NCBI GenBank assembly: GCA_964611575.1
Contig: CAZTAJ010000006.1
Location: 2,780 to 66,779 of the forward strand
Length of the DNA stretch: 64,000 nucleotides
Reading direction: 5' to 3'
DNA from: an uncultured Verrucomicrobiota bacterium
GTDB lineage: Bacteria > Verrucomicrobiota > Kiritimatiellia > CAIKKV01 > CAITUY01
Positions 29,484 to 45,357 of this stretch are shown here, piece by piece; the first letter of the stretch is position 1, and each line of letters opens with the position of its first letter. The notes under the pieces are model-generated. The model did no database searches. It was not told where the DNA came from and saw only the letters and a list, made by a program, of their open reading frames with translations. The position numbers were made by a program, and so were the translations under genes.

Positions 29484-29512
29484 TTTCCCCCTTGTACTGG
29501 GGTCCCCGGCTT
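29484..29512. promoter_or_regulatory. shared intergenic motif copy B (tttcccccttgtactggggtccccggctt)
   Basis: See copy A. Lies in the divergent region between gene starts 29388 (-) and 29560 (+). Confidence 0.3.
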
Positions 29513-29559
29513 GTCTACTTTCACGTGCGACACAGGCATCCGATGAGCAACCGAACTCC

Positions 29560-30897
29560 ATGACCCCGCTTACCCGCATCCTCAAGCGCAACGGCAACAT
29601 CGTGGCGTATGACCGCGAACGGATCGTCATCGCCATCTACAAGGCGACCGCGTCCACCGGCCCGGCCGACCGCGCCCTGGCCGAGCGCATGGCGGAACGG
29701 GTCGAAGCGGCCCTCACCCAGGCCTACACCGGCAACATGCTGCCATCCGTCGAGGACATTCAGGACATCGTCGAGCAGGTGCTCCTCAACAAACAGCACA
29801 CCGACCTGGCGCGCAACTACACCGCCTACCGCCGGCAGCGCGCCATGCTGCGCGCCACCCGCGCCACGTCCTTCGAGATCACGGATAACATCCCCTATAA
29901 GAAGATCTACGAGGTACTGCTCTGGAACATGGCGCATCACTGCGAGGATGTCGAGGGGCTGAACGCCCTCGTGACCGGCGGCGGGCTGCCGGACCTGATC
30001 ACGGCTGCCGAGCAACGCTACGCCGACGAGTGCGCCGTGGCGGCCGAGGCGATGCTGGCCCGCGCCGGGGAGTTGAAACTGGTCATCGTCGCGGGCCCCT
30101 CCTCTTCCGGAAAGACCACGACCACGATCAAGATCGGCGAGCATCTGGCCGCCGCGGGCCTCAAACTCAAGGCCCTGAACATCGACAACTACTTCTTCGA
30201 CCTGGTCCGCCACCCGCGCGACGAATTTGGCGACTACGACTATGAATCGCCGCAGTCCCTCGACCTCGACCTCATCGACCGCCACCTCGGCGACCTCCTG
30301 GCGGGACGCCGCATCCGGACGCCGTCCTACAACTTCAAGACGGGCATCCGGACCCTGGACCATGCGGACTTTCATTTGGCGGATGACGAGATCCTGCTGC
30401 TCGACAGCCTGCATGGCCTCTACGACGACATGACCCGGTCCGTGCCCGCGGCGCGCAAGTACCGCCTCTACGTGGAAACCCTCGGGCAGCTTCGCGCGGC
30501 AGACGGCACCCTCATGCGCTGGGCCGACAACCGGCTGCTGCGACGCATGATCCGCGACCACGCCCACCGCAATCTGCAGCCGATGGAAACGCTGACGCAC
30601 TGGCACTACGTGCGCCGCAGCGAACTCAAACACATCATCCCGTTCATCGGTCAGGCGGACTTCGTGTTGAACACGGCCCTGCCGTTCGAATTGCCGATTC
30701 TCAAGGCCAGAGTGTGGTCGTATTTCCCCGCCGCCATGGAGCGCTTCCGCAGCGACCCGCACCGGCAGGACGCCTACGTGCGGGCCAAGCGCATCCACGA
30801 TCTGCTCCAGCCGGTGGCGCCCCTCGCCGACGATGCCTGCGTCCCCCCCACCTCCCTGCTCCGGGAATTCATCGGCGGCAGCACCTACCGGTACTGA
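29560..30897 (+). CDS. ATP-cone domain fused to a uridine-kinase/PRK-like P-loop kinase
   Basis: ATP-cone (ILKRNGNIVAYDRERIVIAIYKA) then Walker A AGPSSSGKTTT. Start trimmed to ATG 29560. Confidence 0.7.
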   Translation: MTPLTRILKRNGNIVAYDRERIVIAIYKATASTGPADRALAERMAERVEAALTQAYTGNMLPSVEDIQDIVEQVLLNKQHTDLARNYTAYRRQRAMLRATRATSFEITDNIPYKKIYEVLLWNMAHHCEDVEGLNALVTGGGLPDLITAAEQRYADECAVAAEAMLARAGELKLVIVAGPSSSGKTTTTIKIGEHLAAAGLKLKALNIDNYFFDLVRHPRDEFGDYDYESPQSLDLDLIDRHLGDLLAGRRIRTPSYNFKTGIRTLDHADFHLADDEILLLDSLHGLYDDMTRSVPAARKYRLYVETLGQLRAADGTLMRWADNRLLRRMIRDHAHRNLQPMETLTHWHYVRRSELKHIIPFIGQADFVLNTALPFELPILKARVWSYFPAAMERFRSDPHRQDAYVRAKRIHDLLQPVAPLADDACVPPTSLLREFIGGSTYRY

Positions 30898-30910: not shown

Positions 30911-31942
30911 CTACCGCTGATAGATGGGCAACTGACGATAGGAAACGCTCAGGGCCAGGATCGCCATGCTGGTGCAGTACTGGGGATTCGATTCATTGCC
31001 GCCCGTGGACCAGGAGCCGTCGGCGGTCTGGAGTTTCAGGATGGTATCGTACAGCGTGGGCGCGAACGCCTCCCATTCCTGGCCGCCAAGCTGGAACATT
31101 CCGTTGGCGCTGTAATACAGCGCGTAGTACTTGTGCTCGCCCTGGAAGGGATTGCCCTTCGTGAACCGCTCGGCAATGTACTGTCCGGCCTTGAGCGTCA
31201 CGTCGTCCCGGTGCCGCCCGGCGAGTTCGAGGCAGAGCAACCCGATGCCGGTCCGCGCGACGCCCGCCCCGCCTCCCGGCTGATAGGCGAACCCACCGTC
31301 CTGCGTGCGACAGCGCAGGATGAACTTGACGGCCCGTTCGATCGCCTCCCCGGGAATGGGCGCCCCGTTGTTTCGCGCCGACCGCAAAGCCATAAGCGCC
31401 CAGCCGGAATGGGAAATGTCACTGTCGGCGCTGCCGGGCTGATACCGCCAGCCGCCCTCCTGCGCCTCGGGTTTCCGCACGTCCTGCGCCGCCAGGATGA
31501 GCCGGGTGGCGAGCGGCAGAACCGCGTCGATCCGCGACTGGCGCTCCGGCTCCACCATGCCGGACACTTCCGACAGCATGAGTGCCGAGATGTTGTGGCT
31601 GTACATCTGGCCGCCGTTCCCCATCAGGGAGCCATTGGCGGAGGGCATGGACAGGATGTAGTCGACGCCGCGGTTGATCACATCGCCGTGGGGCGGAAGA
31701 CCAGGCGCCTGGCCGCGCGCCAGGAAGGCCATGATCGCCAGTGAGGTGATGGCCGGCGTATTGCCGCCGATCGAGCCGTCGGCCTGCTGCGAGCGGGCCA
31801 GGAAGTCGAGCCCCCTGTCCACGGCCTCGTCAAAGGCACGCTGATACTTGGCATCCTCTATGGCGGCCGGTGCGCCCCACCCCGCCGCCGGACACAACAG
31901 GCAGGCGCAGGCCAGTCCGATGAACGCAGCCGTCTTCATCAT
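30911..31942 (-). CDS. secreted prenyltransferase/squalene-oxidase-repeat (alpha/alpha-toroid) protein
   Basis: Signal or lipoprotein-like N-terminus. Repeated QW-type motifs are present: SQQADGSIGG, EGGWRYQPG, QDGGFAYQPG and TADGSWSTGG. ATGA overlap with the upstream stop. Confidence 0.75.
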   Translation of the reverse strand: MMKTAAFIGLACACLLCPAAGWGAPAAIEDAKYQRAFDEAVDRGLDFLARSQQADGSIGGNTPAITSLAIMAFLARGQAPGLPPHGDVINRGVDYILSMPSANGSLMGNGGQMYSHNISALMLSEVSGMVEPERQSRIDAVLPLATRLILAAQDVRKPEAQEGGWRYQPGSADSDISHSGWALMALRSARNNGAPIPGEAIERAVKFILRCRTQDGGFAYQPGGGAGVARTGIGLLCLELAGRHRDDVTLKAGQYIAERFTKGNPFQGEHKYYALYYSANGMFQLGGQEWEAFAPTLYDTILKLQTADGSWSTGGNESNPQYCTSMAILALSVSYRQLPIYQR

Positions 31943-34900
31943 TCCTCCCCCCCGTGGCCGGAGACTTCGCGGAAGTAGCGCTTGATGAGGGGCCGGTATT
32001 CCTCGGGCCCCTCGCTGCCCGAGGCCTGCAGGACGTCTTCCTTTAACTCACCGTGAAGTCGAAGCCAGTCCTGCAGTTTCATACCCAACCGCCGGGCGAA
32101 GGTCGGAATGTCCTCGGATGCCTGGGCGTCCTCATTCAATCCCCCGCCGCCGGAAGCGGCCGTCTCCAGGGTGGCCGGGCGGGCGTTTGCGCCCAGGGCT
32201 TTTGCCTCGGCGGCGGCCTGGTCGGCGGCCTGCGCCAGTTGCGCCGCCGTTTGGGCGGCATCGATCGCCTTCCCGCTCATGGCGGTCTGGCGGGCGTCCT
32301 CATACGCCTTGGCCAGCGCTTCCCGGGTGGCCGGCGATACCGGCGCCGCACCGGCGGGCGTTGTCGGCGGGGTGGCGGGGATAACCATGGCCTGGGCGGC
32401 GTTCTGAAGATTCCGGGCCGCCTGTTGAAGGGTCTGCGCAGCGCCCTGCTGGGCTTGCCGGATGGTTTCCGCCGCCTGCTGCAGGTTTTGCGCAGATCGT
32501 TTTGCCGGATCCTCGCTTCGCCTGGCGACCTGCTCCATCTGCTGCGCGGCCTGGTCGGCCGCTTGCGCCGCCTGCGCCATCTCCCGCGCCGCCTGCCCGG
32601 CCGGAGGCCCCGCTGGCGAGCGCGCGAGCACCTCCTCGGTCTGCTCACGAATCACCGTGGCGGCCTGCGCCAGCGCGGCGACTTCAGCGGACAACGCCTG
32701 TTGCTGCTTCGCAAGCCGTCCCGAGAACGGGTCGCCGAGACCGTCTTCCTTTCCCTCTTTCCCGGCCAGAAGCGCGGCGGACTGGCGGCGCAGCACCTCC
32801 TGCTGGGTTGCCAGGTCCGACAGCCTGACCGCCGCCAGTTGCTCTTGCGCCCACTTGGCGGATGCGTTCGCCCTGGCAGCCGCATCGACGGCCACCTGGG
32901 CCTTTTCGATGGACGCCTGCGCCGCCTGCCCGGCATCGAGCCTGCCCTTTTGCGCGGCCTGCGGCGCCGCAGTTGCCGCCGCCTGCTGGGCTTGCTGGGC
33001 GGCTTGCTGGGCCGCTTGGGCGGACTGCTGGGAGGCCTGGGCCGCCTGCTGGGATTCCTGGGCGGACTGCTGGGTCTGCTGGGCGGCCTGCTGGGTTTGC
33101 TGGGCGACACGTTGCGCGCCGGTTTCGCTCTCTTTCGCCAACTGCGCGGCCTGGCGGGCGGCTTGCGCCCGGCGCGCTGTCTCCGCCTGCTCGGGCTTGC
33201 CCTTGCTCTGTTGAGCCTCCTTTTCCGCCTGCTCGGCGACCTGCGCGGATTGCCCGGCTGCCTGGCGGATCGCCGCCGCTTGTTGCGCTGTCTGTTGGGC
33301 GGCTTCGCCCGCCTTCTGGGCGGCCTGCTGGGCAGACTGGGCGGCTTGTTGGGCGATCTGCTGGGCGTCCTGCGCCTGGCGGGCCGATTGCTGGGCTTCA
33401 CCGGCAACAGCCGCCGCCGTGGGTTTCGGACCGGCGACCTCCTTGGCCTTCTCTGCGATGGCCCTGACTTGCTCGGCCTTCGCGCCCGCCTCCTGGGCGG
33501 CCTGTTCAACATTCCTGACCTGGCCGTTGGCCCCGGTTTGGCCGGCTTGCCGCTCGGCGTCGGAAGCCTTCTCGGCGGCCTGACGGGATGCCGCCGCCAT
33601 CGTCTGGGCAGTGTCGGCCAAGGCCTGGACCCGCTCGGCCTGTTCACGGGCGTTCCTTGATTTCTGACCGGTGCTCTGGGCGAGATCGTTCTGCCCGGTT
33701 TTCCAGACCCGCTCGGCCAGACGCCGGGCCTCGGCGGAGGGTCGGGTCATGCTCTGCGCTTCCTTTTGCACGGCGGCCGCCGCCTGTTCCGCCTGGGCAG
33801 CCTGTCGGGCCGCCTGTTGCGCGGCGCGCATGGCACGTTCGCGGGCCGACCGCGGCGTCTGGGTGGCCTCATCGGCGAGACGAGCCTGTTCGGCCGCGCG
33901 CCATGCCGCTTGCTGGGCGGCTTCGGATGCGGTCTCCGCCGCCTCGGCGTGGCCCTTCAGGGCCGCCAGGGGTTGTTCCCCGAAAGTCTTGTCGGTTGCC
34001 TGTTGTGCCACCTGCGCTTCCTCGCGCGCCTGGCGCGCCTCCTGGCGTGACTTCGCCGCCGCCTCCCCGGCCGCATCCGCCCGGGCTCGAGCCTCGGCTG
34101 CTTTGCCGCTGGATTCCTGAACCTGTCGCGGTGATGCCCCATTGACAAGCGCCTGATCCGTCTGCTTCTCAGCCTGCCCAGCTTCCTGCCGGGCGCGTTC
34201 CGCCGTCACTCCCGCCTTCAGGGCGGATTGGCTGGCTTCCCTCGCGGCATCGAGTGCCCGCTCCTCGGCCTGTACCGCGCGTTCCTGCGGGGACCCGCGT
34301 TCCACACCATTCACGTTCGCCTGGTGGGCGGCGGTGCGCGCGGCTTCCGCCAGTTGCTCGACCTGTTCCGCGGCATGAACCGCCTGTGCGGCAGCCGCGC
34401 GCCGGGCGGGTTCGGGCTGGTCCTCCCGCCCCGCCTGCTTCGCGGCATTCCGGGTTTCGGCCGCCGCCCGCTTGGCCTGGTCGGCCGCCTGCCCCGCCAC
34501 CTGACTCCATTGGCTGGCATCCTTGGCGGCCTGACGACTCTCGGCGGCCCGGCCTGTCATGTCCTTCACAAGATCCTGCTGCTTCGTCGTCTCCGCCCGC
34601 TTGACCAGGGCAGCGTCGGTGTCGGCCCGCATCTGCGCGCGTTCAGCGCCTTGTTCCGCGCGTTCGGCCGACTGGCGGGCCAGTTGCAGGCCGTCGTCGG
34701 CTTTCTGCAAGGCGGATGCCGCCATCCGGCCAGGGTCATCCGCACCCTGAACCGGATTCGGCGTCTCCATCCGCCGGTCGGCATCCTTCCGCAAGGCGTC
34801 CGCCACCCCGGTCTGGGCTTGTACGGCCGGCTCGGTATTCCCGGCGGCGAGTTCCTTGGCGGCCTGCTGCATGGGCGCACCTTGAAGCGCCGACAGGGGC

Positions 34901-37332
34901 TCACGGCGTGCAAGCGCCGCCAACTGGTCCTGGCGGGCGGCGAGTTCGCGCCCTTCGCGTTCCTGGTTTTGGAGACGATCCGTTTGCTGCCGGGTCAGGG
35001 CGGCTAGTTCGCCCTGGCGGGCCGCCAGTTCCGATGCCTGGCTGGCGGCGCTCACGGCAAGGTTGCTCGTGGCGACGGCCACCTGTTCCGGGGTTCCCGG
35101 CGCCTCCCGCGCCAGGGCGGCGAGACGATCAGCCACCTGGTCCTGGGCTTTCCGCCAGTCATTCGAGGCGGCGGCCGCCTGGGCAACGGCAACGCTGTTG
35201 CTGGCAGGTGGAGGAGCGGCCTGCTCCTGCGTCTGCCGGGTTTGCGCCAGGACGGTCTGCTTGTCCGTCAACCGATCCAGTTCCACCGCGCGTCGCACGG
35301 CGGAACGGGCAATATCGTGGTCCAGGATGGCGTGTTCGACCGCACGCAGCGAGGTCTCGATTTCGGCCGTGAGATTGCTGTTGATGTCCGTCCGCTCGGC
35401 AGGACGATCGACCAGCCTGAGTTGTCCGGCCATGTTCTCGGCTTTGCTGACATGATCATCCGCGAGCGCGATGAGATTGGTCGCGAGCGCCGCGAAGAAT
35501 CCCTTGTCGACATCGACGGCGATGTCGCGCAGGGAATGGTCCGCGGAGGCCAACGCATCCTGCAGGGCATCGATCTTCCGGGCGGTGTCGGCGCTCGGCG
35601 CCGCCTGTTGCGCGAGGGGCGCGTCCAGGGCGCGGGCCTGCTCTCGGGCCGAGGCGAGTTTTTGCTGCACTTGCTTGAGCCCCTGCTGGGCACGCTCCTC
35701 CTGGCTGGTCAGCACCTGCTCCTTCCAGGAAGCCGCCCGCTCATCGAGGAGGATGGTCACCGTGGCCGAATCCCCGGACTGGGGTCCCCCGAGCGGGCCC
35801 GGCAGGTTGTCCGTGGCGCGGAGCCGGAATGCGATGCGCGCCGCGCCGGCGAACAACGGGTCATCGAGCGCAATCTGCGTTTCGCCCTGCATCGCCTTGA
35901 CGCCCTGCTCCGCCTGGGCGGGCAGCGGCAGGGGCCGGATCGTTTCGTTGGACATCCCGGCGATGGTGAACACCAGGGCCAGGCCGGTCAGGCCCAGATC
36001 GTCCTCGGCGGAATAGGCGACCGGGAGACGGGCGTCACGGTTCAAACGCAATTCCCGCTGGCGGGGGTTGACGACAACCGCCACAGGCGGATTGTCCGGA
36101 ATCGACTGGATGGCGTATTCGAAAGGCGCATTGCGTAACCCGATCTCATCGACCAGGTTGAGGGTCCAGCTCCCGTTCAACTGCCGGGGCAGTGTCAGCG
36201 AAAAATCGTAAACCACACCCTGAGCCGCGCCCCGGGAAACGCCCTTGATGGTGTTGGTCGAGGAGGTTCTATCGATGAGCATGACCGCGGATGGCACGGC
36301 CTTGTTGACCGTCGCGGAAACGGTGATCTCGGAGCCGGCCAGCGCGCGGAGGGTGCCGGATCCGTCCCGGACCTGCGTGGCCACGAGCCGGGAGTATTCC
36401 GGGGGCCGACAGCGGACATCGAGATGCTCGATGATCGGCGGGATGGCCACCCGGACCGTGAAATAGCGGGTGAGCGCGTCGCCCGCATGGATGCGATACT
36501 GGAAGCCGGTCAGGACCGCGGGCAGGGTCACCGCAAAGGTCCGGCCCGTCCCGTTGGTGGACGCCGGCACCGCCACCATGTCCGTCACCGTTTCACGGCC
36601 CAGGCGATCCCGTTGCCGCAGGCGGGCCGAGGTGACGGCCGGACTGGCGGCCTGGATCGAAATCCTCAGGCGTGAGCCGGAGGCGATGAGCGTATCGCCC
36701 GGTTCGACGTGGAGGTCGGCGGCATACACATTGGGCAGATTCAGGAAAGGGGCCACGGCCCGCGCCAGCAGGAAGCGCGTCTGGCGGGGCCTGGCCAGCC
36801 ACACGGCGGCCAGCAGGGCAAGCACGAGGCCTGCGGTGACCGCGAACGGAATGGCGGCCCGGAACGAAATCTCATGCTGCGGCTTGAGCCGCACGGCGTC
36901 GCGCACGGCCTCTTCCGTCAACGCGCCGATCAGCACATCGGATCCGCGGATGGACGGCACGTCCCGGCTGCCGAGAAGTTCGACCACGGAACTCAGGCGT
37001 TCCTGGAGTTCGGGATGATGCGCCTCGATCAGGCGGGCGATGCCGGCCAGCGTGAAGGAACGCGCCAGCGGCCGGATCAGGAACCAGAAGAGCGACCCCG
37101 CCCAGATGGAGTAGGCCGTGCCGGTCATCACCCAGCGGGGCCAGCGCGCCAGGAGCGTAAAACCGGCATCGATCGACATGATGACCAGGAACGCCCCGAC
37201 GCCGGCCGCCCAGGCGGCGCAGAGCCCGCGGAGCATAATCAGGCACCGCGCACGGCCAATCAGCCGGCGCAGGGCCTGGATGATGGACGCCGGCAGAACC
37301 AGGGAGCCGTCGAGGGGCGTGTCGGCATTCAT
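31939..37332 (-). CDS. DUF4175-type giant membrane-anchored protein (1797 aa) with a ~1100-aa Ala/Gln/Glu/Arg-rich helical region
   Basis: N-terminal TM helices, a beta-rich region and then a very long low-complexity segment. The C-terminus reads EEYRPLIKRYFREV. Start at ATG 37332, sharing 1 nt with the upstream stop (TGATG). Confidence 0.7.
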   Translation of the reverse strand: MNADTPLDGSLVLPASIIQALRRLIGRARCLIMLRGLCAAWAAGVGAFLVIMSIDAGFTLLARWPRWVMTGTAYSIWAGSLFWFLIRPLARSFTLAGIARLIEAHHPELQERLSSVVELLGSRDVPSIRGSDVLIGALTEEAVRDAVRLKPQHEISFRAAIPFAVTAGLVLALLAAVWLARPRQTRFLLARAVAPFLNLPNVYAADLHVEPGDTLIASGSRLRISIQAASPAVTSARLRQRDRLGRETVTDMVAVPASTNGTGRTFAVTLPAVLTGFQYRIHAGDALTRYFTVRVAIPPIIEHLDVRCRPPEYSRLVATQVRDGSGTLRALAGSEITVSATVNKAVPSAVMLIDRTSSTNTIKGVSRGAAQGVVYDFSLTLPRQLNGSWTLNLVDEIGLRNAPFEYAIQSIPDNPPVAVVVNPRQRELRLNRDARLPVAYSAEDDLGLTGLALVFTIAGMSNETIRPLPLPAQAEQGVKAMQGETQIALDDPLFAGAARIAFRLRATDNLPGPLGGPQSGDSATVTILLDERAASWKEQVLTSQEERAQQGLKQVQQKLASAREQARALDAPLAQQAAPSADTARKIDALQDALASADHSLRDIAVDVDKGFFAALATNLIALADDHVSKAENMAGQLRLVDRPAERTDINSNLTAEIETSLRAVEHAILDHDIARSAVRRAVELDRLTDKQTVLAQTRQTQEQAAPPPASNSVAVAQAAAASNDWRKAQDQVADRLAALAREAPGTPEQVAVATSNLAVSAASQASELAARQGELAALTRQQTDRLQNQEREGRELAARQDQLAALARREPLSALQGAPMQQAAKELAAGNTEPAVQAQTGVADALRKDADRRMETPNPVQGADDPGRMAASALQKADDGLQLARQSAERAEQGAERAQMRADTDAALVKRAETTKQQDLVKDMTGRAAESRQAAKDASQWSQVAGQAADQAKRAAAETRNAAKQAGREDQPEPARRAAAAQAVHAAEQVEQLAEAARTAAHQANVNGVERGSPQERAVQAEERALDAAREASQSALKAGVTAERARQEAGQAEKQTDQALVNGASPRQVQESSGKAAEARARADAAGEAAAKSRQEARQAREEAQVAQQATDKTFGEQPLAALKGHAEAAETASEAAQQAAWRAAEQARLADEATQTPRSARERAMRAAQQAARQAAQAEQAAAAVQKEAQSMTRPSAEARRLAERVWKTGQNDLAQSTGQKSRNAREQAERVQALADTAQTMAAASRQAAEKASDAERQAGQTGANGQVRNVEQAAQEAGAKAEQVRAIAEKAKEVAGPKPTAAAVAGEAQQSARQAQDAQQIAQQAAQSAQQAAQKAGEAAQQTAQQAAAIRQAAGQSAQVAEQAEKEAQQSKGKPEQAETARRAQAARQAAQLAKESETGAQRVAQQTQQAAQQTQQSAQESQQAAQASQQSAQAAQQAAQQAQQAAATAAPQAAQKGRLDAGQAAQASIEKAQVAVDAAARANASAKWAQEQLAAVRLSDLATQQEVLRRQSAALLAGKEGKEDGLGDPFSGRLAKQQQALSAEVAALAQAATVIREQTEEVLARSPAGPPAGQAAREMAQAAQAADQAAQQMEQVARRSEDPAKRSAQNLQQAAETIRQAQQGAAQTLQQAARNLQNAAQAMVIPATPPTTPAGAAPVSPATREALAKAYEDARQTAMSGKAIDAAQTAAQLAQAADQAAAEAKALGANARPATLETAASGGGGLNEDAQASEDIPTFARRLGMKLQDWLRLHGELKEDVLQASGSEGPEEYRPLIKRYFREVSGHGGEE
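32975..33400. repeat. degenerate 9/12-nt coding repeats (NNN)CTGCTGGGC, encoding (A/S)QQ(A/S) runs
   Basis: Read directly, for example 32981-33105 ctgctgggcttgctgggcggcttgctgggccgcttgggcggactgctggga... Confidence 0.8.
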
Positions 37333-40300
37333 CAGGGCAACCTCACTCTCTTGCGCAGCACCCATTCGGCGGTCAGGAGCGCCAGGATCAGGATGAACCA
37401 CGGCCAGGAGTCCCACAGATCCATCTGGCGGCGCTCCACATGGGAGACCACCGCGGGACCCAGCCGTTTGACCAGGGACTCGAGCTCAATGGGCTCCAGA
37501 ACCCTGCCGGCGGTCAGCGCGGCCATGCGGGTCAGCAGCCCGCGGTCTGCCGCCAGTTCGACACACTCGGCATCCATCGCGGCGGTGACGGAGAACTCGG
37601 CGGAGACCGGTTGCGCCAGCGAGGCGCCCCACTCGCCGAGGTCGGCGTTGTCCAGTTCGACGCGGTACCGGCCTTCGGGCAGGGAACCAACTTCGGCGGC
37701 ATAGATGCCGGGCGATTCGGGCCGGTAGATCAATTGCCGGCGCAACACCTGCCGGTCGCCGGCCCGGATCGTGGCATGGGGGGCGGCATTGACGATCGGC
37801 ATGAACTGCGGCGTGGCAAGTCGGGCCAGGATGCGCACCGGGCTGCCGGACGGGTAGCGCGGCCGCGTGGTCCCGATGCGGATCGAGGACGATCCGGCGG
37901 CGATCCGGTCGGCGGTGGCCCAGCGGAGAATCTGCCCCCAGAACTTGTGGTGATACAAGTCACCCTTCCGGTAACGCAGCCGCCAGGTATGGTCGAACCC
38001 GAACATCAGCACGGAGCCGAAGCCGGCATGGTGCGTCACCAGGAGGGCATTGTCCCGTTCGAACTGCTGCTGTTTAAGAAGAGACTCGGCGTCGGGCACC
38101 TGGGCCATCCGCTCGACGCCAGGCGCCTGGGGGATGGACGCATAGGCCAGCACCGACGCTCCTTCCTTGGCGGTCAGGAACCCGTGCCGCCAATGGAGGT
38201 CGGGCATGTCATTCCAGGCCTCCAGATTCCGCGCGGCGTCATCGTCGAGTTTCATGAACACCGTGTTCCGGCCCTGCGCGGTCAGGGTCAGCCTGAAGTC
38301 CGGCTCGGGCGCAGTCAGCAGCGGACGGCTGGAGGACTTGAAGACCACCGGCAGGATCTCCGCCAGCGGGCTGCGGGCATAGGCGTGGGGCATGTGCCGG
38401 CTGCCTGCAATCACGATCAGAGACCCGCCCCGGTCCACCACGTATCTCCGGAGGATGTCCAGATTCTCGCGCCCGAGTTCCTGCGGATCCACGTCGCCCA
38501 GGATGATCACATCGAACTTCATCCATTCCGCTTCATTCTCGGGCGGCAGCGTGGCCTCCGCCCCGGCCGGGTCGCCCGCCACAGAGGCCGGCCGCGGCGT
38601 CGGGTTGGTGATTCCGCCAACCCGGTCGGGATGGAAGAGCAGATACTGGAGCCTGACGTTGCGATCCCGTTCCATGAAGAGGTTCTTGAGATAGCGGAAT
38701 TCCCAGCGGGGATAGCCGTCGATCAGCAGGACTTTGACCGGGTCGCCGCTGACCAGCACCGGCACGTGGCAGACGTTGTTGCTGACATCGACTTCGGAGG
38801 GGAAAGCCTGGATCGCCACGCGGTAGGCGTGCAGCCCGTTGGTCCTGGGAACATCGGACAGCAGAAGCGGCTGCCGGAAGGCTGCGGCATTGGGCCTGAC
38901 CGTGTTGGACGCCACCGCGTCGAGCCCGTCGAAGAGGGTCACCGTCACGTTGGTCCCGGACAGTCCATCCAGTTTCAACTCCAGGTTGAAGGAGACCCGG
39001 TCATTGGTGCTGACGGACTCGGGCGCATCGACGGCGGCCACCGCCGCATCCGTCGGGGGCACGCGGTTGCCGCCGAACACCACGGGAAAAATCGGGACGC
39101 GTTGAACGCCAAGCTTGCGGGCCGTCGGCTCCACCGACTCGGCGGCGTTGTGCCGGCCGTCGGTCAGGAGGACGATGCCGGCGGTGTGTTCCGGCAGGAG
39201 GTCGGCGGCAACCTTTTCCAGGGCGGCGGCAAGATCGGTGCCCTGCCGCTGTTTGACAGGCGGCGCCCCGATCCTGGCCGCGGCGGCCGGGGCGACCATG
39301 TCGGCTACCCGCCATTCCGTCGGGAAGGCCCCGATGGTGTAGAGCATGACGCCGTATTCACGGTCCAGGGTCTCCAGCAGGCCGACCTTGGCCGGCTTGC
39401 CGCCCGGCTTGACCGGCCCGTCGTCCCCGCCCACCAGCAGACGGCGCGCCACGAGGCTACGGCGAAGGGAGACCACCCCGTCGATGGCCTTGCGATCCGC
39501 CTCCGACAGGGACTGGTAGAAGCCCGCGTCAACCGCATCCGCCACCGTCGCCAGATGGCCCTCACAGACCGCGAGGGTCGCCCCGGCTTTTTGCAGCGCC
39601 TGCCGCACCGTTTCATATGCCGGGCCGCTGTTGGTCGAGGACGCCCGCCACTCGCCGGTGAGTTTGCCGGCTTCTTCGAGCGGCGCCTCCGCTTCCGAGG
39701 CCAGTTGTTCCGCCAGGCGTTTCAGGTCCGCCAGAATGCCGCTCTCCTTCTGAAGAAACGGGACCCCGGCGGCCGTGCGCAGAGCGTGGGCCGTGTCCGT
39801 CACCGTTTCGCGGATGCGGTGGAGAGCCTTGCGCTGGGAGCGCGCGTTGCGCTCCAACTGGCGGACGCGGAGCGTGGTTTCGGTTTCGGCCAGCGCATTC
39901 AGCCCGTCGGCCTGGGCGAGCAGATCCTGCCCGGCCTCCCTCAACCCGATGGCGGTTCGATCGAGTTGCAGGGTGCGCCGCGCCGCAGGCACGCCGAGGG
40001 CTTCGGCCAGACGCACCTTCTCGGCAGGGGTCAGGTTGTTGTCGGGGACCTGCATGGAGGCGCTGACGTCGAGCAGCACCACCACACGGCGTTGAATCTT
40101 GCGGAGGGTGTTGAAGACCAGCACCGGCTGGCACAGCATGACGACCACGCTCAGCACAATGGCGGCGCGCAGCGCCGAGAGGGCGATGCCGGCCCGGCGG
40201 GAGACGAGCTGTCGCTCGACCCGGCCCAGGGCAATGACGCCCTCGGCGAGCATGGCGCCGCCGAGCAACAGCGGCCAGATCCGCCAGTGTGTCGCAAACA

Positions 40301-40514
40301 CGACAACATGCCCGGCCGCCTCGACGGCACTGAGCAGGGTCAGGAAACCCAGCGCCGTGCGTCCGGCGAAGGCCGGGATCTGCCACGCCCTGACCAGGCT
40401 CCGGCTCCAGACATGGGATCGCACCCAGATGGCCAGCAGCAGGATGACCGCCGGCAACAGGACGATCAAGGGCATCTCAGGCGTCATGACGGTCTGGAGT
40501 GTGTCAGCGTCCAT
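37332..40514 (-). CDS. TM protein with an interrupted vWA domain and a class-I glutamine-amidotransferase-like domain (Bat-operon type)
   Basis: Several N-terminal TMs, MIDAS VVVLLDVSASM, and a distant GIVLLTDGRHN. Then VKVLLIDGYPRWEFRY...FDVIILGD...GGSLIVIAG and a C-terminal TM. 11-nt overlap with the upstream gene. Confidence 0.65.
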   Translation of the reverse strand: MDADTLQTVMTPEMPLIVLLPAVILLLAIWVRSHVWSRSLVRAWQIPAFAGRTALGFLTLLSAVEAAGHVVVFATHWRIWPLLLGGAMLAEGVIALGRVERQLVSRRAGIALSALRAAIVLSVVVMLCQPVLVFNTLRKIQRRVVVLLDVSASMQVPDNNLTPAEKVRLAEALGVPAARRTLQLDRTAIGLREAGQDLLAQADGLNALAETETTLRVRQLERNARSQRKALHRIRETVTDTAHALRTAAGVPFLQKESGILADLKRLAEQLASEAEAPLEEAGKLTGEWRASSTNSGPAYETVRQALQKAGATLAVCEGHLATVADAVDAGFYQSLSEADRKAIDGVVSLRRSLVARRLLVGGDDGPVKPGGKPAKVGLLETLDREYGVMLYTIGAFPTEWRVADMVAPAAAARIGAPPVKQRQGTDLAAALEKVAADLLPEHTAGIVLLTDGRHNAAESVEPTARKLGVQRVPIFPVVFGGNRVPPTDAAVAAVDAPESVSTNDRVSFNLELKLDGLSGTNVTVTLFDGLDAVASNTVRPNAAAFRQPLLLSDVPRTNGLHAYRVAIQAFPSEVDVSNNVCHVPVLVSGDPVKVLLIDGYPRWEFRYLKNLFMERDRNVRLQYLLFHPDRVGGITNPTPRPASVAGDPAGAEATLPPENEAEWMKFDVIILGDVDPQELGRENLDILRRYVVDRGGSLIVIAGSRHMPHAYARSPLAEILPVVFKSSSRPLLTAPEPDFRLTLTAQGRNTVFMKLDDDAARNLEAWNDMPDLHWRHGFLTAKEGASVLAYASIPQAPGVERMAQVPDAESLLKQQQFERDNALLVTHHAGFGSVLMFGFDHTWRLRYRKGDLYHHKFWGQILRWATADRIAAGSSSIRIGTTRPRYPSGSPVRILARLATPQFMPIVNAAPHATIRAGDRQVLRRQLIYRPESPGIYAAEVGSLPEGRYRVELDNADLGEWGASLAQPVSAEFSVTAAMDAECVELAADRGLLTRMAALTAGRVLEPIELESLVKRLGPAVVSHVERRQMDLWDSWPWFILILALLTAEWVLRKRVRLP

Positions 40515-43020
40515 GCAACGACCTCTCCATCAATCCCGACAGGCGGGCCTTCATGGCTCGAATGTTCTCGGCGGGGGATCGCAGGACCACCGGGTCCGCC
40601 TGGTGGAGTCGCCGGTGGACCGTGATCCAGCGGGTCAGCGCGACCTCGGCCACCCACGTCAGCAGCGCGCACAGGGCCAGGATCTTCCACAGTTCCTGTC
40701 CCGGCACCTTGCCGGAGAAGGACATGACGAGTTCGTCAAGGCTCTCCGGGAGGAACAGGTCGACGTGGCTGCGGATCGCCGCGAGATCGGCATCCGTCAA
40801 CAGCGTGAGGGCGCTTTCGTCAGGCTGATGATTCACCGTGAAGAGCGCCTCGGGAGCGCCGTTCGTGCCGATCCCCGCCGCCATGGCCAGCGCCGCGGGC
40901 AGGCGCATCCGGCACAGGCCGGGTTCGCGGGTTTCCGAGAATCGAACCATGAACCGGCCATTCCTCCGCTCAACCCGGGCCGGGCGGGTTTCGCCAAACG
41001 GCAGGACCACCGTCACGGGATCGGCGTCCGACCCGGTGGGCGACCCCGCCGGCAAGGTGCCCGACAACGCCCATTCCGTGCCCGGCCGGATGTTGCAGTC
41101 CACCAAGGTCGGCGCCGCCAGGAAGTACACAAGCTCGTGGATCAGGGGCACAAAGCACTTCAGGGACGACAGGTTGCTGTCGCGTCGATCGAAGGCCATG
41201 GGCGTCATGAGGACAATGCCCTTGCCTAGTTGACGCTCCACCAGCCAGGGCTCCTGCGAATCGAACTGACCGCCGATCCGGGCCTGGGAGGACAACCGGT
41301 CCACGGTCATCTTCCAGTAAGCCGACACCAGGCTGAACCGCGCGTCCGACTGATCCGGTTGCGCCACCAGGCGCAGGGCGGGATGGGTGAATGACTTGAG
41401 GTCGAGACGGAGCGGTTCGGCGAGGACCACGCGCTCCTTCAGTTCGGCGGGGGTCACGGCCTCGCCCGACGGCGCCTGCCAGGCATTGTAGAAGCCCGGC
41501 TCCGCACGGCCGCCCGGCGCAATCAGCAGCCCGCCGCCGGCCTTGACGAAGGCGCTCAGGCGATCCGCCACGGCGGAAGGCAGGCGGGGGACATCGGCAA
41601 GGATGACGACCCGGTAGGGCGACAGGTCGGTGACGGCGACAACGCTGGCGGCCTCCACGATCGTTGGGTTCACCAGGAACGACGGTTCCGCCAGGGAAGG
41701 CTCCGTGTCGCGGGCCGCCTCGCGCGGGGTCAGCGCGGACCGGATGAGGCTGGACGTCTTGCGGAAGAAGAACCGCTCGGTTGAGGCGCCCTCGACCAGG
41801 AGCACCGGCAGGCGGTCCAGGACATGGACGACCCGTTCGAGCGTATTGTCCGCAACCAGGTCGTCCTCCACGGCCACCTGTGCCTTCAGGACACGGTATC
41901 CCGGCTGCTCGAACGTGTGGTTGAAATGGAACACCTCGGCCGTCTGCGGCAGCAGATCCTTCACGAGGGGGATCCGCTCGACCCGCTGACCGTCGACCAG
42001 CAACTCCACGGCGGCGGGTTGCAGGGGACCCTGGCCGGCATTGACGAGGGTGACATCCACCTTGACCGGGCGGTCGGTGCCGACGACATCGCGCGAGAGG
42101 CGGATCTCCGAGACCAGCGCATTACGAAATGACTTCGGGACCGGCAGCCGCCGGCAGACGACCCGCGGCGGCGAGGGCAGCGCCTTGAAGCCGGCGGCCA
42201 CGAACTGCCAGCGGGCCTCGGCCTGCGGGTCCCATCCCGTCGCATGTCCATCGGTGAAGATCACCACCGTCTTGGCGGCGTTGGGTCCCTCGGCCAGCAG
42301 GCCCGCGGCCAGGTTCAGGGCTTCCAGCGTGGCCATGCTCCCGCCGGCGGGCCGGCACTCCGGGCTCTTCAGGGCCCGCTGCAACTCACGCCGGTCGGAG
42401 GTCGGGCGGCGGACCAGCGGTTGCGGAACGGGGCCGCCCAGGATGAGGGCGCAGGCATCGCCGGGGCGCGAGGCCTCGATGAGCGCGCGGGCTTCTTCCA
42501 CGGCGCGGCTGAAATTGCTCCGGCCCTCCACGGCAAGCGTCATGGACAGCGACGCGTCCAGGATGATCACCGTATCGCCACCGCCCGCCGTCAGCCAGCG
42601 GCGCGCCTGGATCCACCGTTCCAGCAGGGACACCAGCACCGCGACCACCAGCACCGTGAGGGCGATCCCCAGCAGCCGCCGGCGGAGGACTTCGTTCGTC
42701 CACAACACGGTGGCGATCCCGGCGCAGAGCACGGCGAGCAGGATGGCAGGCAGAATCAGCACCCAGGGAATCGCCGACAGGCTGGGCAGGAACGGGCGGG
42801 CCATGGCCAGCGCAAGCAGCGCCAGGCCGAGGCAGCGGACACACAGCAGGATGCCATCCTCGATCTGCACGCGCCGGCTGCGCGCGGCGATGGAGGCGAC
42901 CAGGAACTGCATGGCGCCCCAAGGGATCGGACGCGGTTTGCTGCGGTTCAACAGGTGAATGACGATCGGGATCGCGATGGCCGCGAACCCGAGCAACATG
43001 GATACTTTCAAGAACGTCAC
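40504..43020 (-). CDS. BatA_N (aerotolerance-regulator N-terminal) + vWA + GATase1-like domain protein
   Basis: MLLGFAAIAIPIVIHLLNRSK double-TM N-terminus, MIDAS VIILDASLSM and VVIFTDGHATG. A GATase1-like segment follows: LPVLLVEG...VVILADV...GGGLLIAPG. GTG start. Confidence 0.8.
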   Translation of the reverse strand: MTFLKVSMLLGFAAIAIPIVIHLLNRSKPRPIPWGAMQFLVASIAARSRRVQIEDGILLCVRCLGLALLALAMARPFLPSLSAIPWVLILPAILLAVLCAGIATVLWTNEVLRRRLLGIALTVLVVAVLVSLLERWIQARRWLTAGGGDTVIILDASLSMTLAVEGRSNFSRAVEEARALIEASRPGDACALILGGPVPQPLVRRPTSDRRELQRALKSPECRPAGGSMATLEALNLAAGLLAEGPNAAKTVVIFTDGHATGWDPQAEARWQFVAAGFKALPSPPRVVCRRLPVPKSFRNALVSEIRLSRDVVGTDRPVKVDVTLVNAGQGPLQPAAVELLVDGQRVERIPLVKDLLPQTAEVFHFNHTFEQPGYRVLKAQVAVEDDLVADNTLERVVHVLDRLPVLLVEGASTERFFFRKTSSLIRSALTPREAARDTEPSLAEPSFLVNPTIVEAASVVAVTDLSPYRVVILADVPRLPSAVADRLSAFVKAGGGLLIAPGGRAEPGFYNAWQAPSGEAVTPAELKERVVLAEPLRLDLKSFTHPALRLVAQPDQSDARFSLVSAYWKMTVDRLSSQARIGGQFDSQEPWLVERQLGKGIVLMTPMAFDRRDSNLSSLKCFVPLIHELVYFLAAPTLVDCNIRPGTEWALSGTLPAGSPTGSDADPVTVVLPFGETRPARVERRNGRFMVRFSETREPGLCRMRLPAALAMAAGIGTNGAPEALFTVNHQPDESALTLLTDADLAAIRSHVDLFLPESLDELVMSFSGKVPGQELWKILALCALLTWVAEVALTRWITVHRRLHQADPVVLRSPAENIRAMKARLSGLMERSLHGR

Positions 43021-43036
43021 ACCCCGCCCCTGCCCT

Positions 43037-44026
43037 TCACTTGATCAGACTCCGCCGGTGCGCCAGGTAAGTCGCCAGCGCCATATCGAACTCCTGGCGG
43101 GTCGAGAAAGGCACGTAGTCGATTCGCATCTCCCCGCACCCCTTTTCAATGGCCGCGAGAAACGCGCGCACCTCGCCGAGGTACGCGGAACGCAGGGACT
43201 CGGGGTCGAGGTCCAGGTGGTGCCCGGCTTGTTCGAGATCCTTGAACTGGCTCCAGCGCTTGAAGGGAAACGTCAATTCCTCGTCGGCCATGACATGCAT
43301 GAGGATGACGTCGTGCTTGCGGAAACGGAAATGATGCAGCGCCTTGAGAAGATCCTCGGCGCGGTCGAAGAGATCGGAAATCACGATCAGCAGGCCGCGG
43401 CGGTGCACCCGCTCGGCGATGTCGTGGAGCACCGGCGCCAGCGCCGTCTCCTCGCCCGGTTCCGTCTGAAACAGCTCGTCCAGCAGAACGCTCATGTGAT
43501 TGGCCCGGCACCGGGAGGGCAGGTAGCGGCGGATCGCGGCGTCAAAGGTCACCAGGCCCACGGCATCCTGCTGGTTGAGGAGGAGTCGGACGAGCGAGGC
43601 GGCCAGGAAACGGGCATACTCGAATTTGCTGAGCGGGTTGCCCTTGTGGCGGGCCGCGTTCTCCCCGCGATAGGCCATTGACCCGGACGCATCCAGCAGG
43701 ATGGTCGCCCGCAGATTCGTCTCCTCGATGTACTGCTTGATGTAGTACCGGTCGGACTTGGCGTACGCCCGCCAGTCCAGGTCGCGCAGGTCATCGCCCG
43801 GCGCATAGGCGCGATGTTCCGCGAACTCCACGGAGAAGCCGCGATACGGGCTGCGATGGCGGCCGGAAATGAAACCCTCCACCGGGTGGCGGGCCAGCAA
43901 CTCGACCCGGCTGATCTTGGCCATCGCCTCGGGATCCAGCAGTTGGAGATAGGCCGGAGCGGAAGACGACCGGGGACCGGAACGGTCCGCGACCGCCTGG
44001 CAATGGAGGCTTGCTAACGTATCCAC
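43037..44026 (-). CDS. DUF58 domain protein (vWA-like, MoxR partner)
   Basis: GRHRSPYRGFSVEFAEHRAYAPGDDLRDLDWRAYAKSD...ILLDASGSM. Confidence 0.85.
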   Translation of the reverse strand: MDTLASLHCQAVADRSGPRSSSAPAYLQLLDPEAMAKISRVELLARHPVEGFISGRHRSPYRGFSVEFAEHRAYAPGDDLRDLDWRAYAKSDRYYIKQYIEETNLRATILLDASGSMAYRGENAARHKGNPLSKFEYARFLAASLVRLLLNQQDAVGLVTFDAAIRRYLPSRCRANHMSVLLDELFQTEPGEETALAPVLHDIAERVHRRGLLIVISDLFDRAEDLLKALHHFRFRKHDVILMHVMADEELTFPFKRWSQFKDLEQAGHHLDLDPESLRSAYLGEVRAFLAAIEKGCGEMRIDYVPFSTRQEFDMALATYLAHRRSLIK

Positions 44027-44046
44027 GTGTTCATCCCGGCGCGGGT

Positions 44047-45099
44047 TCAGGCGAGGCGGTCCGGCGCGGACGGTTGGATCTCCTCAAGGAGACGATGGAC
44101 GATCTGGTCGGTCGAGATGCCGGCGGCATCGGCATTGAAGGTGGGGACGATGCGATGGCGCAGAATGGCCACCGCCATCTCACGGACATCCTCCGTCGTG
44201 GCGTGATAGCGGCCGTGGAGAATGGCGCGCGCCTTCGCCGCCAGCATCATGTTGATGGTCGCCCGGGGGCCGGCCCCCCACTGGACGAGTTCACGGATGA
44301 AAGCCGGCGAGGAGGGGCCCGGCCGGCTGGCGCGCGCCAGGTCACGGGCATACTCGAAGACGTGGTCGGCCGCCGGAACGCGGCGGACAATGTGCTGCAG
44401 CTTGACGATGTCGTCGCCGGACAGGACCGTCGTGAGCTCCGCCTCGTAAGTCCCGGTGACTTTCTTGGCAATGTCGAGTTCCTCGGCGGCGGAGGGGTAG
44501 TCCACCTTGATCATGAACATGAACCGGTCCAACTGCGCCTCGGGCAGCGGGTACGTGCCTTCCTGTTCGATGGGATTCTGCGTGGCCAGCACAAAGAAGG
44601 GATCCGGCAGTTTGAAGTCGGCATCGCCCACGGTGACGATCCGTTCCTGCATGGCCTCCAGCAGGGCGGCCTGGGTCTTCGGCGGTGTGCGGTTGATTTC
44701 GTCGGCCAGCACCATGTTGGCAAACAGGGGGCCGCGGACGAACCGGAAGACGCGCTTGCCGGTGGTGCGGTCCTCCTCAAGCACATCCGTGCCGGTGATG
44801 TCGGCGGGCATCAGGTCGGGAGTGAACTGGACGCGCTTGAACGTCAGGTGCATGACCCGGGACAGGGTGCTCACGAGCAGCGTCTTCGCGAGGCCGGGAA
44901 CGCCGACCAGCAAGGCGTGGCTGCGGCAGAAGATGGCGACGAGGACCTGCTCGATGACCTGGTCCTGCCCGACGATGGCCAGCCGCAGTTGCTCGGTCAT
45001 CTTCAGATACGCCGCATTCAGCGCCTTGACCGTTTCGATATCGCCCTGGGGCTCCAGTGCCGGCAGGATGGAAGAGTGTTGTTGCACGTCGCGTTGCAT
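44047..45099 (-). CDS. moxR: MoxR-family AAA+ ATPase
   Basis: Walker A GVPGLAKT, Walker B VLADEINR and TQNPIEQEGTYPLPEAQLDRF. GGAGG RBS before ATG 45099. Confidence 0.9.
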   Translation of the reverse strand: MQRDVQQHSSILPALEPQGDIETVKALNAAYLKMTEQLRLAIVGQDQVIEQVLVAIFCRSHALLVGVPGLAKTLLVSTLSRVMHLTFKRVQFTPDLMPADITGTDVLEEDRTTGKRVFRFVRGPLFANMVLADEINRTPPKTQAALLEAMQERIVTVGDADFKLPDPFFVLATQNPIEQEGTYPLPEAQLDRFMFMIKVDYPSAAEELDIAKKVTGTYEAELTTVLSGDDIVKLQHIVRRVPAADHVFEYARDLARASRPGPSSPAFIRELVQWGAGPRATINMMLAAKARAILHGRYHATTEDVREMAVAILRHRIVPTFNADAAGISTDQIVHRLLEEIQPSAPDRLA

Positions 45100-45155: not shown

Positions 45156-45171
45156 TGCATAATCCATGCCA
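45156..45171 (-). promoter_or_regulatory. candidate sigma54 (-24/-12) promoter TGGCATGGATTATGCA for the moxR operon
   Basis: The minus-strand read matches TGGCACG-N4-TTGCW with correct GG/GC spacing and two mismatches. It lies 57-72 nt upstream of the moxR ATG. Confidence 0.5.
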
Positions 45172-45255: not shown

Positions 45256-45271
45256 TGCATCCCAGTATGCA
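45256..45271. promoter_or_regulatory. candidate enhancer (UAS) inverted repeat TGCAT-N6-ATGCA
   Basis: Lies about 85-100 bp upstream of the -24 element. Further ATGCA-like motifs occur at 45155-45160 and 45297-45303. Confidence 0.25.
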
Positions 45272-45357
45272 GGTTGTCCGGCCAGGCGTATTCAAGTGTA
45301 TGCACATGCCTGTTGACCCGCGGGGGTCGGGTGAAGTAGCCTCCCCGCTCACAACCC

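Follow-up and report, generated by a model that had tools for sequence, protein, structure and literature searches.

The DNA analysed here is a 64,000 nt stretch (the window) of contig CAZTAJ010000006.1 (assembly GCA_964611575.1, positions 2,780 to 66,779 of the forward strand), from an uncultured Verrucomicrobiota bacterium of the Kiritimatiellia. Between 30911 and 45099, six minus-strand open reading frames (ORFs) specify, in order, a MoxR AAA+ ATPase, a DUF58 protein, two large membrane proteins named here P3 and P4, a very long protein referred to here as the giant, and an alpha/alpha-toroid protein (Table 1). These six ORFs had been listed in an initial annotation made from the sequence alone, and their order, and the sizes given there for P3, P4 and the giant, are confirmed.

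The six genes are tightly packed, and the coordinates and a direct reading of the junctions reproduce the spacing first noted. Gaps of 20 and 16 nt separate moxR from the DUF58 gene and the DUF58 gene from the P3 gene, and the P3 and P4 genes overlap by 11 nt. The P4 and giant genes overlap by 1 nt in a TGATG at 37332, and the giant and toroid genes by 4 nt in an ATGA at 31939-31942 that has a GGAGG just 5' of it. The longest ORF for the giant specifies 1825 aa, while translation from the ATG at 37332 yields 1797 aa. As homologues start to align at residues 1-13 of the ATG version, the 1797 aa length, which was also the one first annotated, is preferred.

All six ORFs exhibit the third-position GC bias expected of genuine genes (GC3 0.80-0.87) in a sequence that is approximately 65% GC. 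The cluster is bordered on both sides by plus-strand genes and includes 5 terminator-like hairpins, fewer than the 8.9 seen in shuffled sequence. Rfam and tRNA scans over the whole window returned no match. Given the tight packing, the opposite-strand borders and the small number of hairpins, the simplest reading is that the six genes make up a single transcription unit, and this predicted unit is called the operon below.

Table 1. Features of the operon and its immediate surroundings (window coordinates)
Feature	Position	Strand	Length or remarks
MoxR AAA+ ATPase (MRP subfamily) gene	44047-45099	minus	350 aa
DUF58 protein gene	43037-44026	minus	329 aa, GTG start
P3 (BatA_N, vWA, Ig, GATase1-like) gene	40504-43020	minus	838 aa, GTG start
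P4 (P3 paralogue) gene	37332-40514	minus	1060 aa
Giant gene, longest ORF	31939-37416	minus	1825 aa, GTG start
Giant N-terminal module, aa 1-535	35728-37332	minus	from AlphaFold2, invariant residues and charge analysis
Giant Ala/Gln/Arg/Glu-rich helical spacer, aa 536-1700	32233-35727	minus	from composition and periodicity
Giant C-terminal motif region, motif aa ~1750-1790	31939-32232	minus	from conservation
Alpha/alpha-toroid gene	30911-31942	minus	343 aa
ATP-cone/uridine-kinase-like gene	29401-30897	plus	bounds the cluster
Sigma-54-type promoter element TGGCATGGATTATGCA (-24 GG / -12 GC)	45156-45171	minus	57 nt upstream of the MoxR ATG
Two TGCATAC-containing islands	45265-45320	minus	~95-150 nt upstream of the -24 element; candidate activator-binding sites
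FHA, sigma-54-interaction AAA+ and HTH_8 activator gene	45358-46749	plus	463 aa; divergent from the operon
Ser/Thr protein kinase gene, double zinc ribbon	46795-49038	minus	747 aa; Pkinase 4.7e-41, DZR 4e-5

Conservation of the six-gene arrangement

With the window proteins as tblastn queries, almost all loci of sufficient length showed the order MoxR-DUF58-P3-P4-giant-toroid on a single strand. The groups represented are Planctomycetales, Pirellulales, Brocadiaceae, Phycisphaerae, Verrucomicrobiales, Akkermansiaceae, Roseibacillus, Luteolibacter, Kiritimatiellia, Victivallales and Lentisphaerae. All six ORFs are complete and in order in 31 loci, which come from Planctomycetota, Verrucomicrobiota, Kiritimatiellia and Lentisphaerae. 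As the order is identical in these 31 loci, the arrangement is far above chance, and the earlier reading of the genes as one compact unit is supported by their co-conservation. In two Kiritimatiellae loci the toroid gene was found upstream of moxR. Clustering of the flanking ORFs over all loci returned clade-specific neighbours and no further conserved one, and we conclude that the six genes are a closed module. Our confidence in the identity and conservation of the operon is high.

A profile search with P4 returned relatives in at least 594 species genomes, and the best 80 are all from the Planctomycetes-Verrucomicrobia-Chlamydiae (PVC) superphylum. The top match, in a Victivallales metagenome-assembled genome, was 52% identical. 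The weakest P4-like matches, such as a 770 aa protein from Tundrisphaera (locus L078), are shorter paralogues located outside the operon, and the figure of 594 genomes thus overstates its spread.

No description of the six-gene form was found in the literature searched, which covered MoxR, DUF58 and BatA in PVC bacteria, DUF4175, DUF4159, TIGR02226 and TIGR02302, aerotolerance in planctomycetes, and BatB, BatC and BatD, in line with the earlier view that the extended form is undescribed. The genes are absent from the text of Pinos et al. 2016. The module of 'compartmentalised PVC species' reported by Kamneva et al. 2012 was considered as a possible match to the operon and rejected, as it is a DUF1501/PSCyt module with no MoxR or DUF58.

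The MoxR and DUF58 proteins

The MoxR protein matches the Pfam families AAA_3 (1.7e-61, 206 bits) and AAA_lid_2 (4.7e-17) and, in a PDB profile search, entry 2r44 (2.7e-77). The database entry for 2r44 says only that it is an uncharacterised protein; we take it to be the structure of an MRP-type MoxR from Cytophaga. The Walker A (GxPGxAKT) and Walker B (DEINR) motifs are invariant among 45 orthologues and, judged by them, the ATPase site is intact. MoxR includes no transmembrane (TM) segment or signal sequence and is thus predicted to be cytoplasmic.

The DUF58 gene lies directly downstream of moxR, and this adjacency is kept across loci. Its product matches DUF58 (5.4e-42) and VWA_2 (6.6e-6) in Pfam and has a vWA-like fold. 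The metal ion-dependent adhesion site (MIDAS) consists of D112-x-S114-x-S116, present in 45-46 of the 48 orthologues, and D218, present in 46 of them. No hydrophobic or TM segment and no signal peptide was found in the protein, which is predicted to be a cytoplasmic adaptor of MoxR.

MoxR-vWA conflict systems exist (PMC7159879), and MoxR has a secondary match (2.1e-12) to bpMoxR, as might be expected if the operon served in phage defence or conflict, in the manner of the MoxR-vWA-beta-propeller ternary systems. However, the AAA_3 match is far stronger than that to bpMoxR (47 bits), none of the six proteins matches PADLOC (0/6), and no beta-propeller or effector domain is present in any of them. 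Order and content are strict over four PVC lineages and identity tracks taxonomy, which is the pattern of a core housekeeping system and not of a mobile defence island. We consider a role in defence extremely improbable.

P3 and P4 are paralogous membrane proteins

P3 matches BatA_N (PF07584, 1.9e-15) and TIGR02226 (2.5e-20) over residues 1-79, and further along VWA_2 (6.7e-14), CARDB (1.7e-3) and Glyco_hydro_42M (1.3e-4), a family with a GATase1-like fold (Pfam and NCBIfam). Hydrophobic segments were found at residues 6-24, 56-74, 87-105, 116-134 and 777-795. From N- to C-terminus, P3 therefore consists of a BatA_N double-TM region, a further pair of TM helices, a MIDAS-containing vWA domain, CARDB-like immunoglobulin-like (Ig) and GATase1-like domains and a last TM helix. 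The MIDAS residues D155, S157, S159 and D257 are invariant in 50 orthologues.

The AlphaFold2 model of P4 (mean pLDDT 86.9) begins with four TM helices followed by a vWA domain. This domain is interrupted: the strand with the DxSxS motif (149-153) is parted from the remainder by a four-helix insert of approximately 150 aa (184-335). Beyond the vWA domain the model includes a CARDB-like Ig domain, a GATase1-like domain, a macroglobulin (MG)-like Ig domain and a final TM helix. Matches to PDB profiles were found for the vWA (4cn8, 7e-9), GATase1-like (3rht, 5.9e-5) and CARDB (2kl6, 1.4e-3) domains, and in Pfam there was a weak match to VWA and a match to DUF7408. Among 46 homologues the MIDAS residues D149, S153, T426 and D452 are invariant and S151 is nearly so. 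The GATase1-like domain has the consensus 'IVIAGxRxMPHAY' and no conserved nucleophile. Two P4 homologues carry precomputed MG2 matches.

Comparison of P3 and P4 using hhalign gave a probability of 94% (E 1.1e-7, 335 columns), and on this evidence they are paralogous polytopic membrane proteins, a relation that the initial annotation had missed. Judged by residue conservation, the MIDAS metal site is complete in each of DUF58, P3 and P4. The presence of three such conserved sites suggests the binding of acidic ligands, which could favour a dedicated MoxR/vWA chaperone or quality-control system acting on an outside client such as a respiratory or other membrane complex, as RavA-ViaA, CbbQO and NorQD do, or membrane-proximal degradation of the MoxR-vWA-YebA kind, with P3, P4 and the giant as accessory or client-recruiting factors and not as a structural tether. 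The MoxR proteins studied to date are maturation factors of specific complexes (PMC3893208), and MoxR-vWA-TGL operons have been proposed to be degradation systems (PMC3495828). Against this, the cluster encodes no peptidase or transglutaminase-like domain, and no client gene is conserved beside the operon in any lineage. In addition, the four non-ATPase partners are as well conserved as MoxR, which suggests that they are parts of a machine rather than adaptors. An outside client is, in our view, unlikely.

In a Foldseek search, P4 had weak, domain-level similarities (TMq <=0.15) and no solved multi-domain relative. Its top match was 7oci_G, chain G of the yeast oligosaccharyltransferase complex (E 2e-7, TMt 0.36). 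From its length of approximately 393 residues, we take this chain to be Wbp1/OST48, though the search output names no subunit. Many glycoside-hydrolase beta-sandwich modules came next. Together with the CARDB-like and MG-like Ig domains, which are typical of surface proteins, and the glycan-degrading genes that are abundant around the operon, these matches would fit a cell-surface or exopolymer apparatus for adhesion, polysaccharide handling or gliding-type organisation, with GldG/OST48-like modules and a toroid that binds glycan or lipid. However, the structural similarity does not extend beyond single domains, the operon has no linked gene for a glycosyltransferase, an ABC transporter or export, and the surroundings differ between lineages. 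Such an apparatus seems rather improbable.

The giant protein

An AlphaFold2 model of residues 1-620 of the giant (pLDDT 80.7) starts with a TM hairpin, continues with an acidic helical segment (approximately residues 88-157) and TM3, and then has three Ig-like beta-sandwich domains in tandem (207-529), with predicted helices beginning at residue 536. The acidic segment between TM2 and TM3 is the best-conserved part of the whole protein, and the invariant residues are A99, E103, P107, E111, S115, G130, S131, A142 and E154. When the N-terminal module was used to query a library of 1.84 billion proteins with phmmer, 7,004 representative relatives were returned at E<=1e-3. Foldseek found only generic tandem-Ig matches for it.

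Ala makes up 28% of residues 536-1700 (approximately 1,165 aa), Gln 15%, and Arg and Glu 8% each. The charges are balanced and there is weak periodicity at 7 residues (heptad) and at 3.55 residues. The very long helical spacer of the initial annotation corresponds to this Ala/Gln-rich, predicted helical region. The last 45 or so residues include a family-wide motif, DW.RL.G....LQA.....P.EYR.LI.RYF, in which W1756, P1776, E1778, Y1779, Y1786 and F1787 are nearly invariant. A query with the C-terminus was found in frame with the N-terminal module in 33 loci. A word-based search with the 65 aa C-terminus returned three near-identical fragments and reached no other architecture.

The giant itself has no match in Pfam or NCBIfam, including PF13779 (DUF4175; gathering threshold 27.3 bits, model length 825 positions) and TIGR02302, even at E<=1 with parts of the protein such as residues 1-620. 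In two alignments of giant homologues (n=17 and n=27; 24-64% identical across both), PF13779 was matched by 8 of 17 and 9 of 27 (best 5.3e-32). As about a third to a half of its homologues match the family, the giant is by transitivity a divergent relative of DUF4175 and not a scoring member. The label 'DUF4175-type' first given to it therefore applies only indirectly.

The giant's orthologues are between 1,077 and 2,210 aa long, which implies a spacer of roughly 450-1,570 aa. Lengths are 1,105-1,323 aa in Verrucomicrobiota, 1,531-1,809 aa in Planctomycetia and 1,209-1,733 aa in Victivallales. The related locus L081 has a giant (13183-19815) of 2210 aa, compared with 1797 aa here, though the P4 proteins of the two are 75% identical. 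An 80% identical protein (P0090) is 1762 aa. Within the Ala/Gln-rich middle of the giant gene there are short tandem DNA repeats of 12 and 21 nt at 32981-33373. Together, the repeats and the fast length change fit expansion and contraction of this region by slippage or recombination. A ruler had been one role first proposed for the operon. As lengths vary this widely, with near relatives hundreds of residues apart, and full extension would go far beyond a normal periplasm, a fixed-length ruler is unlikely.

The toroid protein

The last gene had been annotated as encoding a secreted prenyltransferase/squalene-oxidase-repeat protein, and the domain assignment was verified. The product has a hydrophobic N-terminal signal sequence and a single barrel of prenyltransferase/squalene-cyclase-type repeats that matches Prenyltrans (7e-10, 39 bits) and SQHop_cyclase_C (7e-9, 36 bits), both locally and over the repeat regions only. 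It also matches squalene-hopene cyclase (PDB 2sqc, 5.7e-7), while its score against TIGR01787 is 47 bits where the cut-off is 322.7. The structural repeat motifs GGW and D-S-D-x-S-C-S-G-W are invariant in 41 orthologues. The sequence includes no DxDD motif and no two-barrel cyclase architecture, in a comparison that excluded the Zn ligands of the prenyltransferase beta subunit. The toroid is probably a binder and not an enzyme. The ATGA overlap between the giant and toroid genes recurs in many loci across phyla.

Regulation in this lineage

The spacer upstream of moxR is 258 nt and contains the sigma-54-type element TGGCATGGATTATGCA, the sole match to TGGCAYN5WTGCW in the window (64 kb), against an expectation of 0.19. 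The element is kept in L081, inside a spacer that has otherwise diverged. A pairwise footprint of the two spacers retains only the -24/-12 element, the Shine-Dalgarno sequence and two upstream islands, 'GGGTCAACA.G.ATGTGCATACAC' and 'ACCTGCATAC', with the surroundings diverged. Upstream of MoxR, the sigma-54 motif is missing from 41 of 43 other loci.

The divergently transcribed neighbour matches Sigma54_activat (4.3e-69), FHA (5.1e-16) and HTH_8 (3e-7), and probably regulates the operon in this lineage. The kinase encoded beyond it may, tentatively, supply a phospho-Thr input to the FHA domain. Kinase, activator and operon are arranged identically in L081 (1460-5348) but not in other PVC lineages. 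The unique motif, the conserved footprint and the same neighbours in L081 suggest a control chain, confined to this lineage, that would run from the kinase through the FHA activator to a sigma-54 promoter. The initial annotation had not remarked on this setting of the operon.

Other genes in the window and in L081

A gene for a weak GH5-like protein (27706-29388) adjoins two overlapping minus-strand paralogues (25478-26479 and 26464-27483) that are URO-D-like, i.e. of the uroporphyrinogen decarboxylase/methyltransferase type. Large minus-strand genes at 9374-21056 encode a glycyl-radical enzyme (PFL-like, 5.5e-140), an FG-GAP/PQQ-like beta-propeller protein, a 1274 aa protein with no Pfam match and a 1146 aa GH123_N/3-keto-disaccharide-hydrolase protein, followed by a GntR/periplasmic-binding-type regulator. 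This region looks like an anaerobic glycan-utilisation locus. At the 3' end of the window, GC content falls to 57-59% over plus-strand genes at 60359-62900 that encode an Eco57I-type restriction-modification methylase (7.7e-37) and a BRO-N protein (7.7e-10). This is probably a remnant of a mobile element or prophage.

In L081, a minus-strand gene at 22246-23183 for a bacterial alpha-2-macroglobulin of more than 2000 aa (MG2/A2M/TED/bMG10) is located downstream of the operon at a distance of approximately 1.4 kb, with a GH30 gene in between. Its proximity may be coincidental, yet it shares with the operon products both MG-type Ig and alpha/alpha-toroid (TED-like) folds.

Predicted topology and a proposed mechanism

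Applying the positive-inside rule to alignments of P4 gave net charges of +3.9 for the TM1-2 loop, +2.4 for the TM3-4 loop and +3.5 for the C-terminal tail. As positive loops and tail should be cytoplasmic, the region of approximately 900 residues that includes the vWA, Ig, GATase1-like and MG domains is predicted to be periplasmic. In alignments of the giant, the N-terminus has a net charge of +3.6 and the TM2-TM3 segment includes a mean of 10.6 Asp/Glu residues. The N-terminus and this acidic segment are predicted to be cytoplasmic, and everything after TM3 to be exported. The predicted topology agrees with the signal sequence of the toroid and with the vWA domain of the BatA-like protein BB0173, which was shown experimentally to face the periplasm (PMC5700661).

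As neither MoxR nor DUF58 has a TM segment or a signal sequence, the cytoplasmic handles available to them would be only short loops, tails and the acidic segment of the giant. The arrangement that we infer keeps MoxR and DUF58 in the cytoplasm and puts the toroid in the periplasm, together with most of the giant and the large P3 and P4 domains. Domain matches and models thus support the domain logic originally put forward, with membrane-embedded vWA/GATase1-like proteins, a long helix and a secreted toroid.

We propose that a MoxR hexamer would be docked by the DUF58 MIDAS onto a cytoplasmic acidic element, most likely the TM2-TM3 segment of the giant, and that ATP hydrolysis by MoxR would drive the assembly or remodelling of an inner-membrane complex. 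The giant could then act as a TolA-like helical arm anchored in the inner membrane. The toroid, bound at the C-terminal motif of the giant, would be carried towards the cell wall or outer membrane, and arm and toroid together would contribute to envelope integrity. In this lineage, expression might be driven from the sigma-54 promoter by the divergent FHA-domain activator, which may in turn be controlled by the adjacent Ser/Thr kinase. The recurring ATGA overlap and the in-frame occurrence of the C-terminal motif and N-terminal module are the cues that point to a link between the giant and the toroid.

Several points weigh against this scheme. The pairings of DUF58 with the giant and of the giant with the toroid are guesses from conservation and gene overlap. 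The 25 residues that follow TM3 of the giant are net positive (+2.3), which is mildly contrary to export. Fully extended, a spacer of 450-1,570 aa would measure 65-235 nm, far above a normal periplasm, and must therefore fold back or serve another purpose; its length also differs by hundreds of residues between relatives. The giant falls below every DUF4175 and TIGR02302 threshold, and the phenotypes cited were seen in distant relatives, alphaproteobacteria with neither P4 nor the toroid. Sigma-54 control is not general, with the motif found in only 2 of the 43 other loci.

On balance, the operon probably builds an inner-membrane complex that is serviced by an ATPase and has a very long periplasmic arm. 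A role as an envelope tether is plausible, with low to moderate confidence. We give about even odds to the proposal as a whole, namely that the operon is a PVC-wide six-gene expansion of the MoxR(MRP)-DUF58-BatA_N/vWA-DUF4175 family to which Bacteroides Bat and Rhizobium RL3499-RL3502 belong, with the docking, the TolA-like arm and the sigma-54 control included. A stronger version would be a PVC-specific envelope-spanning machine with a TolA/TonB-like arm whose conformation or assembly is powered by MoxR and not by a proton-driven stator, coupled through DUF58 to the acidic cytoplasmic segment and tipped by a toroid that grips the wall or outer membrane. We regard this version as unlikely; if true, the machine would organise the unusually large and variable periplasm of PVC bacteria.

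Among bacterial gene clusters that still lack a mechanism, MoxR-DUF58-vWA operons are some of the most widespread, and the question dates back to the description of the Bat operon in 1999. While another MoxR/vWA operon will not surprise a specialist, the variant described here is informative as a closed six-gene set present in four PVC lineages, whose products have predicted sites in the cytoplasm (two), in the inner membrane with periplasmic domains (three) and outside the inner membrane as a secreted protein (one). It also offers concrete candidate pairings, DUF58 with the acidic loop of the giant and the C-terminal motif of the giant with the toroid, and a closed six-part set makes an old question experimentally approachable. 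For Planctomycetes and Verrucomicrobia, where the cell plan is a long-standing matter of debate, the operon is a candidate determinant of envelope architecture. Should the giant indeed link the inner membrane to outer layers under the control of an ATPase, envelope tethers would be energised here in a novel way.

Comparison with known systems

Of the systems already known, the four-gene RL3499-RL3502 operon of the alphaproteobacterium Rhizobium leguminosarum, described as broadly conserved, is closest. RL3501 and RL3502 reportedly encode an N-terminal double-TM protein and a DUF4175/TIGR02302 protein. The first three gene types are the same and in the same order, MoxR (MRP), DUF58 and a TIGR02226/BatA_N double-TM protein. 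A long membrane protein of low complexity comes later in both, and the one in the window is tied to DUF4175 through its homologues. The operon in the window has six genes, the extra ones being the P4 paralogue located before the giant and the coupled secreted toroid. The giant is also about twice the length of the 825-position DUF4175 model and more divergent, and the distribution is in PVC bacteria rather than Alphaproteobacteria. When P3 was used as a tblastn query against a plasmid collection, in search of an annotated alphaproteobacterial operon, no match was found.

According to a title cited in PMC5118466, mutation of RL3499-RL3502 leads to defects in morphology and envelope integrity, and PMC5118466 itself reports that insertions in RL3499 and RL3500 impair growth on complex medium. 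The core is thus of a known kind that has a phenotype. The CenR envelope/division regulon of Rhodobacter sphaeroides includes a TIGR02302 protein and a MoxR protein. By homology to these two cases, an envelope role for the six-gene operon is supported.

The initial annotation had named the Bacteroides Bat operon as the nearest relative. This was not borne out, as equivalents of BatC, BatD and BatE are absent and RL3499-RL3502 is closer. The Bacteroides fragilis BatI and spirochaete Bat operons do share with the window a MoxR, a DUF58 protein and a BatA-type (BatA_N and vWA) inner-membrane protein. However, the second vWA protein here is unlike BatB, having a split vWA domain together with Ig, GATase1-like and MG-like domains, and the giant and toroid have no Bat counterpart. 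No match to BatC/BatE-type TPR proteins or to BatD was found among the six products (Pfam and NCBIfam, E<=0.01).

These comparisons bear on whether the operon could be a Bat-type aerotolerance or oxidative-stress system that delivers reducing power to the periplasm or protects against oxidants, as was proposed for B. fragilis BatI. The MoxR, DUF58 and vWA core with the BatA N-terminal domain of P3 would suit such a role, and oxygen tolerance would be relevant to the host, which, with its glycyl-radical enzyme and numerous glycoside hydrolases, resembles an anaerobe that ferments glycans. On the other hand, the Bat-type TPR proteins and BatD are lacking, Pfam and NCBIfam reveal no redox domain (thioredoxin, cytochrome, Fe-S or flavin) in the six proteins, and the operon is equally kept in aerobic Verrucomicrobia and Planctomycetes. 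The reducing-power idea was itself never demonstrated (PMC5700661, discussion), and a study of Leptospira Bat proteins reports no experimentally shown function (PMC3557215). We therefore think a Bat-type function quite improbable.

A membrane-proximal MoxR-vWA-YebA(TGL) system was proposed by Zhang and Aravind and noted in the Lentisphaerae-Verrucomicrobia-Planctomycetes clade (PMC3495828). It resembles the operon in having a MoxR and a DUF58-type vWA adaptor that would act on membrane proteins. However, the window operon includes no transglutaminase-like peptidase, and a degradative output is thus unsupported.

TolA is a functional analogue only. It shares with the giant an anchor in the inner membrane, a long charged helix rich in Ala and a small conserved C-terminal domain, and envelope integrity is implicated here through the homologous operons. 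There is no sequence kinship, the giant's spacer, which varies in length, exceeds TolA domain II several-fold, and in place of a TolQ/TolR-type proton motor the sole energy source encoded in the cluster is the cytoplasmic AAA+ ATPase. While the core family was already known, the inserted P4 paralogue, the coupled toroid and the longer, divergent giant distinguish this PVC form, which is apparently undescribed.

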